Positions 28,816-29,941 of a stretch of DNA of 64,000 bases are shown piece after piece. Origin of the DNA: Candidatus Thorarchaeota archaeon (GTDB lineage: Archaea; Asgardarchaeota; Thorarchaeia; Thorarchaeales; Thorarchaeaceae); the NCBI GenBank assembly GCA_029855935.1, contig JAGSHN010000031.1, forward strand, positions 32,001-96,000, in the 5' to 3' direction. The notes below the pieces were generated by a model, which saw only the letters and a list, made by a program, of their open reading frames with translations, was not told the DNA's origin and searched no databases. The stretch's first letter is position 1; every line of letters begins with the position of its first letter. The position numbers and the translations under genes were made by a program.

Positions 28816-29187
28816 CTATTCGGCCTCGCCCTCATCAGAGGCCTCTTCCTCATTCGGCTTCTCGGCCTTGACCTCTTCCTCCTCAATGCTCTCAGCCTTG
28901 GCAGTCCTTGGCGCAATGCCCATCAGATAGAAGTATCCGAGGATCAGGCTGACCAACGACAGGAGGACCGTAACGCCGACCGCACCAGCATAGCCAAACC
29001 AGCTCACCGGGTTGATGACTAGGTTCTCCACAGCGCTGGAGAGAGCAATCTGCTGGAGCCACATCGGAATCACGAACACCAGCGGGATACAGATTATGAT
29101 GAGGAGCACGATGGACATAATAATCTCGGCCATATGAGTTAGAACTCTGCGTATCGTGCTGTCAACTGCCTTCTTTGCCGACGCCAT
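28816..29187 (-). CDS. Two-TM hypothetical protein
   Basis: Hydropathy, acidic tail, TATA CTTTAAAG ~29230. Confidence 0.7.
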   Translation of the reverse strand: MASAKKAVDSTIRRVLTHMAEIIMSIVLLIIICIPLVFVIPMWLQQIALSSAVENLVINPVSWFGYAGAVGVTVLLSLVSLILGYFYLMGIAPRTAKAESIEEEEVKAEKPNEEEASDEGEAE

Positions 29188-29258
29188 GTGTCTGTCTCCT
29201 TCAGTCTGGGACCGACGGGGCTCATGCTTTAAAGATTGCTCTGGAGAGCAGAGGGCTC

Positions 29259-29340
29259 TCGGGGACCCAAAAGGAGAGGAGAAGTGTCAGATGAGAGAGA
29301 GGATGAGTAGCGGTTGGGAATGGGAGGAAGGTCCCCGATT
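29259..29340 (-). ncRNA. Candidate sRNA 1 (terminal stem, CU-rich loop)
   Basis: 9-bp IR 29259..29267/29330..29338; TATA TTTATATT at 29363..29370 (minus). Confidence 0.5.
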
Positions 29341-29426
29341 ATATGATAATACGTTCTACTACAATATAAAGATAGCTTGTGCGTATGATCCTGCAGCGCC
29401 TCGGCTCAGAGTAGCAGAATGGGTAT

Positions 29427-29495
29427 CCGGGGCCATAGAAGAACGCAGGAAGGAGGAGAGAATATGGAGGTGCACAAATAGATGGCCCCGGTTCT
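29427..29495 (-). ncRNA. Candidate sRNA 2 (terminal stem, CU-rich loop with CACCUCC)
   Basis: 10-bp IR 29427..29436/29482..29491; TATA GTTATATG at 29520..29527 (minus). Confidence 0.5.
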
Positions 29496-29626
29496 CCTTG
29501 ATTCCTTGTACAATCAATGCATATAACAAAAGCTGTGATTAATAGTTATTGCGGTACTCGCAATTCAGAGCCCGAGGTATTGACGTCATCGCAACCCTTA
29601 TTAGGAAGTGATTGCGTAGTCCTCAA

Positions 29627-29772
29627 GTGAATGTGCCGGAGAGGCGTGTGACTCGTTTCAAGCGAGAATCCCTCCCACAATCCTGATCGCATTTGAAGTG
29701 CACACATCCTCTCCTCCTCTCAAGCAATCAAAAGCGAACCTTTCTCCTTTTCGCGCCTCCCGGCACACTCAC
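29627..29772 (+). ncRNA. Candidate sRNA 3 (~21-bp terminal stem, CU-rich loop)
   Basis: Arms 29627..29648/29752..29772; TATA CTTATTA at 29597..29603. Confidence 0.5.
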
Positions 29773-29941
29773 TCCATCCATTGTCCTTCTGTTGGTAGGG
29801 CCTGTACTTTGAGGGTGACCCTTTTCCGATACAGCTGTGGCTGCGTACGGGCAGGTCAAGCCGAAATCGTCCAGCCAATTGGACAATCAGTGGAGAAGGA
29901 TACCGCTGTCGCGATGAAACCCTCTACCAGCGGCCTTCTCA

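Follow-up and report, generated by a model that had tools for sequence, protein, structure and literature searches.

Does the 754-bp gap between two minus-strand genes of an uncultured Candidatus Thorarchaeota archaeon, represented solely by a metagenome-assembled genome (MAG; GenBank assembly GCA_029855935.1), contain genes for small RNAs, and, if so, what might such RNAs do? The gap lies at positions 29188-29941 of the window, by which is meant the whole stretch of 64,000 nt that was analyzed (contig JAGSHN010000031.1, positions 32,001 to 96,000 of the forward strand). A first-pass annotation, made from the sequence, had placed in a gene-free region of about 750 bp three units of one design, each with a TATA box followed by a GC-rich stem that closes a pyrimidine-rich loop, and had proposed that they are translation-repressing RNAs. 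Asgard archaea are the prokaryotes most closely related to eukaryotes; next to nothing has been charted of their regulatory RNAs, and the literature search found no paper on small RNAs of Thorarchaeota. The three units, here called U1 (-), U2 (-), and U3 (+), occupy positions 29255-29772 and are very probably real small RNA genes. Folding reproduced all three, the loop sequences that had been quoted for them were correct, and the TATA boxes were found on the strands that had been assigned, 23-30 nt upstream of an end-to-end helix around a largely unpaired loop. The U1 helix is 10 bp long (29259-29268/29329-29338), including one U-G pair, and closes a 60-nt loop with zero predicted pairs; the U2 closing helix also has 10 bp (29427-29436/29482-29491), and that of U3 has about 20 bp with one bulge (29628-29648/29752-29771).

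The design had also been held to lie beyond compositional chance, a claim that stands on comparative data and not on the architecture alone. A scan of the genome for 8-bp GC stems closing a loop of at least 70% pyrimidine gave 23 real hits as against 11-19 in shuffles that preserve local composition over 60 nt, and the majority of the 23 lie opposite purine-rich coding sequence, on its antisense strand. The two hits with the strongest skew in the genome are U1 and U2, which are 90 bp apart, a coincidence that is unlikely by chance. The scan also drew attention to an intergenic look-alike at G000:C20:44502-44583 (+), which has an 8-bp GC clasp and a 60-nt loop of 77% pyrimidine that carries CCCUCCCUCC and CACCACCUCU; it is absent from 40 of the 40 relatives checked, including those of its own genus, and is either a strain-specific element or a chance look-alike. 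Because the shuffles yield so many hits and the look-alike is not conserved, the clasped pyrimidine loop by itself, in a single genome, is weak evidence, and the case is carried by the grouping of three units within one intergenic gap and, above all, by comparison among genomes.

This comparison employed covariance models of the three units (R1 for U3, R2 for U2, and R3 for U1) and a sample of the archaeal family comprising 86 genomes in 16 genera. Cross-genus alignments of U2 made with MAFFT were out of register, and model-based alignments were used instead. In these, 92.5% of the cells of the U2 helix are paired, with double changes in 9 of its 10 pairs, and 90.4% of the cells of the U3 closing helix are paired, with double changes in 7 of 9, although the alignments were fitted to the model structure and therefore lean towards it, which counts against taking the pair counts at face value. 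None of 500 shuffles reached the values observed for either RNA, and paired cells fell to 32-64% in a control in which the partners were slid by 1-3 columns. The raw sequences themselves show arms that are unlike yet complementary (CCGGGGCC, GGGGGUC, CGACCUGAGG, CUCGAGGG, GGCUUGGGGGUC). Covariation of the stems in relatives, which the first-pass annotation had named as a check on its proposal, was thus found for U2 and U3, and, judged from these substitution patterns, the closing stems form genuine RNA helices, in which changes on one side are compensated on the other. Pairing of the outer extension of the U3 helix (UUGAA/UUCAA) is inconsistent across the alignment. The smallest U3 genes, of about 90 nt, consist of the clasp and the open loop only, so that the two inner hairpins of U3 are regarded as optional insertions; in relatives the length of the gene ranges from 90 to 190 nt. 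The minimum free energy structure closes from end to end in 25 of 29 U3 sequences and 30 of 30 U2 sequences, and the conserved CU tract is predicted to be unpaired in every homolog, with a mean probability of 0.94 in U3 and 0.88 in U2.

Each of the three units occurs as a single copy in this genome, and the whole gap can be aligned within the genus, the loops being kept better than their flanks. Across the family, R1 detects one copy of U3 per genome in 43 of the 86 genomes and 12 of the 16 genera; this count is a lower bound, since, once the filters were switched off, diverged copies came to light at the expected place in some R1-negative genomes (e.g., L086). R2 detects U2 in 29 of the 86 genomes and 7 genera, including g3, g2, and g4, in which R1 matches none, and U2 was seen by eye in four further genera on the opposite strand to U3, 140-240 nt upstream of it. 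The distribution of U1 is narrower than that of U2 and U3: R3 matches 8 of the 86 genomes, namely all five of the genus, G016, and, weakly, G024 and G044, and more diverged U1-like units were seen at the equivalent position in g2, g3, and g4. R1 matched nothing in 125 other Asgard genomes sampled, nor did R2 in a set of 125 genomes from outside the family. When some 186,000 species genomes were scanned for an exact pattern of U3, the hits were 11 contigs with titles of Thorarchaeota or Promethearchaeota MAGs, together with two bacterial hits that are probably due to chance. Cross-hits among R1, R2, and R3 are weak, at 14-21 bits. The folds and these weak cross-hits agree with the earlier statement that the units share a design while differing in sequence; on the other hand, because their motifs and cores differ and the models hardly recognize one another, U1, U2, and U3 are three distinct families with a common design, and not the one undescribed family that had been suggested. 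That they are undescribed holds as far as Rfam 15 is concerned: there was no match in the whole window at gathering thresholds, and the sole match in the cluster region under relaxed settings was to Clostridiales-1, which scored 15 bits where the cut-off is 48 and fell on the wrong strand.

A B recognition element (BRE)/TATA element stands 23-30 nt before the clasp on the predicted strand and is conserved for both U2 and U3, in each case in about 30 genomes, as the first-pass annotation would lead one to expect from its assignment of strands. The ATATAA of the U1 promoter is invariant across the genus alignment, and TTATAT also precedes the U1-like units of G016 and G017; ATTATAT or CTTAAAT precedes U2 at equal distance in about 30 genomes, and ATCRCAA followed by a TATA element precedes U3 at equal distance across genera. 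Pyrimidine runs or T-runs follow the 3′ arms, in g3 as a T5 run directly after U2; G-U pairs exceed A-C mismatches when U3 is read on the plus strand; and the purine-rich strands have no conserved promoter. On these sequence features, the units are to be read as three independent putative transcription units on the predicted strands. Within 110 nt upstream of U3, an 11-bp dyad, GYGA-N3-TCRC, is present in 18 of 30 genomes as compared with 1 of 30 control regions. Its positions are fixed at about -72 and/or about -40, the latter abutting the TATA box, and the copy in this genome (29549-29563) is degenerate. From this arrangement it may be supposed that the divergent promoters of U2 and U3 are served by a transcription factor of their own, with the dyad as its candidate operator.

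What the loops display bears on function. The invariant core of U2 is UUCUCUCUCCUCCUUCC(A/U)GCGUUCU, and the conserved loop of U3 contains CUCCCUCCUGAAAUCCU and ACACAUCCUCUCCUCCUCAAGCAACCA(A/U)GCGAACC, followed by a U4-U7 tract, whereas U1 has a different conserved core, AACCGCUACUC ... CUCUCUCAUCUGACA. As a separate observation, the region G000:C28:231290-231450 (+) has a TATA-like CCTAAAAGG, a GGGGCAG/CUGCCCC clasp, and a 7-bp hairpin with a 22-nt loop (ACUUCCUCUCUCCUCCCAACCG) that has CCCAACCGC in common with U1, and may represent another small RNA. All 30 U3 sequences and 29 of 30 U2 sequences contain CCUCC. The 3′ tail of the 16S ribosomal RNA (rRNA) reads AUCACCUCCU, and GGAGG is enriched about 4-fold before crude starts of open reading frames (ORFs), where GAGGAG, AGGAGG, and GGAGGA are the most frequent hexamers; given this tail and this enrichment, the exposed tracts of U2 and U3 would be perfect competitors of the ribosome at GGAGG sites. 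The complement of the invariant U3 tract itself reads as an ideal start region, GGAGGAGAGGAUG. As in small RNAs that mask ribosome-binding sites, the units have their own promoters and T-runs and a predicted-unpaired seed that is complementary to GGAGG. An anti-Shine-Dalgarno reading is therefore plausible for U2 and U3, for which the display of such motifs that had been claimed is borne out by near-invariant, predicted-unpaired CCUCC; it does not extend to U1. At the 3′ end of the 16S rRNA (L044 1255-1300, G000:C23), between the last conserved helix (GCGGAUGGA) and the tail, there is also an insert of about 30 nt, capable of forming a hairpin (AGCCCACAAGGGCACCUUGCGGGCCAUCA), which is an rRNA expansion adjoining the mRNA-docking sequence.

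Of the readings considered, the following scheme is the most likely. Each RNA would be transcribed from its own archaeal BRE/TATA promoter, and its 5′ and 3′ ends would pair as a GC-rich clasp that holds the conserved pyrimidine-rich tract single-stranded. U2 (through CUCUCCUCCUUCC) and U3 (through CCCUCC and CAUCCUCUCCUCCUC) might then pair in trans with purine-rich ribosome-binding regions of the GGAGG type and compete with the 16S tail, reducing translation or stability, possibly with the assistance of an Sm-like protein bound at the U-tract; U1, with its differing core, would probably have targets of its own.

Several observations weigh against masking of ribosome-binding sites. Complementarity to GGAGG does not discriminate, as any CU-rich RNA matches GGAGG, and GGAGG precedes a candidate start in merely about 6-15% of ORFs. 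CCUCC-type motifs occur in just 1 of 6 U1 sequences, that of this genome. The conserved tract of U3, of about 40 nt, includes the non-CU sequence CAAGCAACCAAGCGAACC; such a tract appears to exceed what masking of a Shine-Dalgarno sequence would need, and a dedicated partner would fit it better. In 17 of 30 U3 genes the 3′ arm is immediately preceded by a run of T5 or longer, at which archaeal transcription could end with the clasp still incomplete. Nor did complementarity searches point to an mRNA: a genome-wide duplex and seed search with the three loops gave no convincing target, its output being mostly long-loop artefacts, and neither the handful of matches from an anchored search for start regions of the GGAGGAGAGG+AUG type nor the few 14-16-mers complementary to the U2 and U3 cores were convincing. 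A perfect complement of 16 nt at C28:50588 was considered as a target and rejected, since no gene begins at that place, where the ORF is 16 codons long. Complementarity to the contig of the rRNA operon came to runs of 9-11 nt, G-U pairs included, which is the level of chance. The whole account, three RNA genes of which U2 and U3 act in trans by masking ribosome-binding sites, is accordingly put forward as tentative, with a little less than even confidence.

The coordinates of the features are collected in Table 1. The wider neighborhood is one of housekeeping genes (Snf7, Mrp/NUBPL ATPase, HAD hydrolases, sugar isomerase), and no tRNA was found in the cluster region. The provirus covers 1-17.8 kb of the window, so that the gap lies outside it, and no link was found to the provirus operons that had been suggested as targets. 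Throughout the family the gene order is Mrp (+), membrane protein (-), U1 (-), U2 (-), U3 (+), p128 (-), and HAD (-). The gene of the membrane protein was found by tblastn in 66 of the examined loci, and the 123-aa protein matched no Pfam family over the cut-off; the palindromic CTTTAAAG upstream is probably its promoter and, being palindromic, could in principle initiate transcription in the other direction too, along the plus strand through U1. Members of the p128 family are present in 41 of 43 genomes inside the archaeal family and in 0 of 158 outside it, and a distant paralog is found in most genomes. In the loci checked, p128 adjoins U3 and is convergent with it, with the exception of G017, and both the p128 ortholog and U3 are missing from genus g3 (0/17). 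The predicted structure of p128 (predicted local distance difference test score, 80.6) is a mixed alpha/beta fold, which gave no match over Z 4.1 in comparison with PDB (Foldseek, VIA-align wide) and nothing above 0.76 in the Atlas search; the Pfam search gave a weak DUF3592 match only, below the cut-off.

Table 1. Small RNA units, their promoters, and adjoining features; positions are those of the window.
Feature	Position	Strand	Basis or remark
U1 small RNA gene, ~80 nt	29255-29342	-	fold, genus alignment, and model R3
U1 conserved loop core	29285-29319	-	genus alignment; core kept better than flanks
U1 TATA box TTTATAT	29364-29371	-	25 nt upstream of helix
U2 small RNA gene, ~70 nt	29423-29495	-	fold (z = -3.4) and model R2
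U2 conserved loop core UUCUCUCCUCCUUCCUGCGUUCU	29440-29462	-	
U2 TATA box TTTTGTTATAT	29521-29531	-	~29 nt upstream of helix
U3 small RNA gene, ~145 nt here	29628-29772	+	fold (z = -5.0) and model R1
U3 promoter	29588-29604	+	BRE-like half-site ATCGCAAC at 29588-29595; TATA CTTATTAG at 29597-29604; 23 nt before RNA
U3 small hairpins	29652-29666 and 29689-29701	+	optional
U3 unpaired conserved tract CCCUCCC	29670-29676	+	
U3 unpaired conserved tract ACACAUCCUCUCCUCCUCUCAAGCAAUCAAAAGCGAACC	29702-29741	+	
U3 U4 tract	29748-29751	+	directly before 3′ arm
Near-palindrome TTGCG-N5-CGCAA	29549-29563		between divergent U2 and U3 promoters; candidate transcription-factor site
Palindromic TATA-like CTTTAAAG	29227-29234		invariant in genus alignment; ~40 nt before ATG at 29187
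Membrane protein, 123 aa, acidic tail	28816-29187	-	constant neighbor of cluster
p128, soluble protein of 128 aa	29942-30328	-	convergent with U3

Among the alternatives, the one that survives best is that the units encode protein-binding decoy or scaffold RNAs, the clasped loop of which would display pyrimidine tracts resembling the 3′ tail of the 16S rRNA or an oligo-U site. Such RNAs would titrate or assemble a protein, for instance p128 itself, an Sm-like protein, or a factor of the KH type with affinity for the 16S tail, rather than pair with mRNA. An invariant single strand as long as that of U3, its non-CU part included, is what one typically sees where an RNA has a dedicated partner; of 30 U3 sequences, 28 have a U4-U7 tract immediately 5′ of the 3′ arm; the genome has three LSM-domain genes; and in the U3 closing helix the GUG is recurrently followed by a bulged U. 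The failure of the complementarity searches to yield a target points in the same direction, as does p128, which is limited to the same family, adjoins U3, and is missing together with it from g3. However, the eukaryotic Sm-site consensus was found in only 3 of 30 U3 sequences, no Ro/TROVE gene was found, p128 has no recognizable RNA-binding fold, the joint loss of U3 and p128 in g3 is a single evolutionary event, and G017 retains U3 without p128. This alternative is considered unlikely, though by no means negligible. An extension of it is that U3, and perhaps U2, forms the RNA core of a lineage-specific Asgard particle resembling a small nuclear ribonucleoprotein (snRNP), which would combine a mimic of the 16S tail with an oligo-U site for Sm-like proteins and/or p128 and would not be an antisense regulator. 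If true, the particle would titrate mRNAs that contain Shine-Dalgarno sequences or a factor that binds the tail of the small subunit, and no counterpart of such a decoy or snRNP-like particle has been described in prokaryotes or elsewhere; we regard this as improbable.

A role confined to the locus seems more improbable still. U1 would then serve the membrane-protein gene, which is on its strand, as a leader or upstream element, and overlap of 3′ ends would allow U3 to act on the convergent transcript of p128, as might be suspected from the adjacency to both flanking genes, which is fixed family-wide. The end of U1 lies 75 nt before the ATG at 29187, U1 can form 8 pairs with GAAGGAGA of the membrane-protein gene in this genome, and the 3′ ends of U3 and p128 are 38-170 nt apart. 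Nevertheless, the complementarity of U1 to the membrane-protein gene is lost in G001, and the conserved TATA-like palindrome between the two implies that the gene has a promoter of its own; U3 does not overlap the coding sequence of p128 and is found without it in G017, and U2 has no such neighbor at all.

Very little favors the view that the units act at the DNA level, as inverted repeats with polypurine/polypyrimidine spacers, whether for protein binding or recombination or as an origin of replication. Inverted repeats are indeed present in an intergenic region that is slightly richer in AT (GC 0.51 as against about 0.56), but their arms vary freely while staying complementary, with G-U pairs allowed, the conserved parts are the asymmetric loops, and every unit has its own TATA box at the distance expected for a transcription start; moreover, there is no Orc1/Cdc6 neighbor, the GC skew is flat and makes no turn, and the elements are single-copy and not mobile. 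Least credible of all is that the purine-rich strands carry small protein genes such as the 53-codon ORF at 29546-29707 (-), which the sequence of U3 most likely creates incidentally: although its ATG stands five bases after a GGAGG that is exactly antisense to the invariant U3 tract, the complement of which makes a textbook start region, the frame from the same ATG has 53 codons here, 33 in G001, 7 in G019, and 6 in G043, indels are not multiples of three, the ORF would traverse the promoter of U3, and no conserved promoter is found on that strand.

Returning to U1, U2, and U3 as small RNA genes, what the analysis provides is a set of three RNA families, defined by covariance models and with clear promoters, structures, and exposed invariant sequences, at one locus throughout an archaeal family; to these it adds a candidate operator and p128, a protein inherited along with them. 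The RNAs offer handles on translation control in Asgard archaea, in particular on their reliance on Shine-Dalgarno sequences and on Sm-like proteins as RNA chaperones, and the models R1-R3 can be used for annotating MAGs and for seeking the transcripts in metatranscriptomes.

How do these RNAs compare with known classes? Box C/D small RNAs were considered and rejected, as this class has a C box (RUGAUGA) behind the 5′ end and a D box (CUGA) ahead of the 3′ end, which together make a kink-turn, whereas there is no C box in any unit, CUGA is internal only (U1 and U3), and no C/D family of Rfam was matched. Circular forms, for which the first-pass annotation had advised a search, are unlikely to arise by the archaeal splicing pathway: no bulge-helix-bulge motif, with its two 3-nt bulges set 4 bp apart, is present, the helices of U1 and U2 being continuous and that of U3 having single-nucleotide bulges only, and an RNA circularized by the splicing endonuclease was rejected on this ground. 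The likeness to the Y RNAs of eukaryotes and the bacterial YrlA is closer, for in these also the ends form a long helix with conserved bulges, the large loop is rich in pyrimidine, and the tail is oligo-U. Y RNAs are, however, defined by binding to Ro60, and a search of this 97% complete genome for TROVE (PF05731) found nothing, while control genomes scored; with no TROVE gene and no match to Y_RNA in Rfam, identity with Y RNAs was rejected. The U3 closing helix does have its recurrent bulged U, but no sequence likeness to the Ro site.

Anti-Shine-Dalgarno-type small RNAs of bacteria provide a nearer comparison. In Firmicutes, unpaired C-rich motifs of RsaE/RoxS and LhrC-type small RNAs pair with G-rich Shine-Dalgarno regions, but these RNAs are bacterial, carry CCCC motifs in hairpin loops, and have architectures unlike that of the units described here. 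The cuckoo RNAs of Alphaproteobacteria (RSs0680/CcsR, SmelC397/NfeR1) have CCUCCUCCC in their loops (PMC4615179). As points of likeness to the present units, they are clustered or sibling small RNAs in which the sole conserved sequence is an exposed, CCUCC-rich motif of the anti-Shine-Dalgarno type (PMC4615179), the stems vary by compensatory change, and the genomic context is kept. The two groups differ in that cuckoo RNAs are bacterial and consist of 2-4 adjacent short hairpins with CCUCCUCCC loops and a bacterial terminator, whereas each unit here has one end-to-end helix, an open loop of 45-130 nt, the motifs CUCUCCUCCUUCC and CAUCCUCUCCUCCUC, and an archaeal promoter. Membership in the cuckoo class was rejected, as no sequence or model match was obtained, the exact CCUCCUCCC is absent from all three units, and a single helix takes the place of adjacent hairpins. 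Among archaea, sRNA41 of Methanosarcina mazei is an intergenic small RNA which is proposed to repress translation by masking ribosome-binding sites inside mRNAs, its targets, the ACDS operons, having been found experimentally (Buddeweg et al., 2018, as described in PMC5867862). It belongs to a different phylum, and no homology to the present units would be expected. Cuckoo RNAs and sRNA41 follow the same logic and provide a precedent for masking of ribosome-binding sites by U2 and U3. In this light, U1, U2, and U3 are best described as very probably real, uncatalogued, family-specific, single-copy small RNA genes of archaea, the clasped open loop of which appears to be a structural variant of the anti-Shine-Dalgarno-type RNA.

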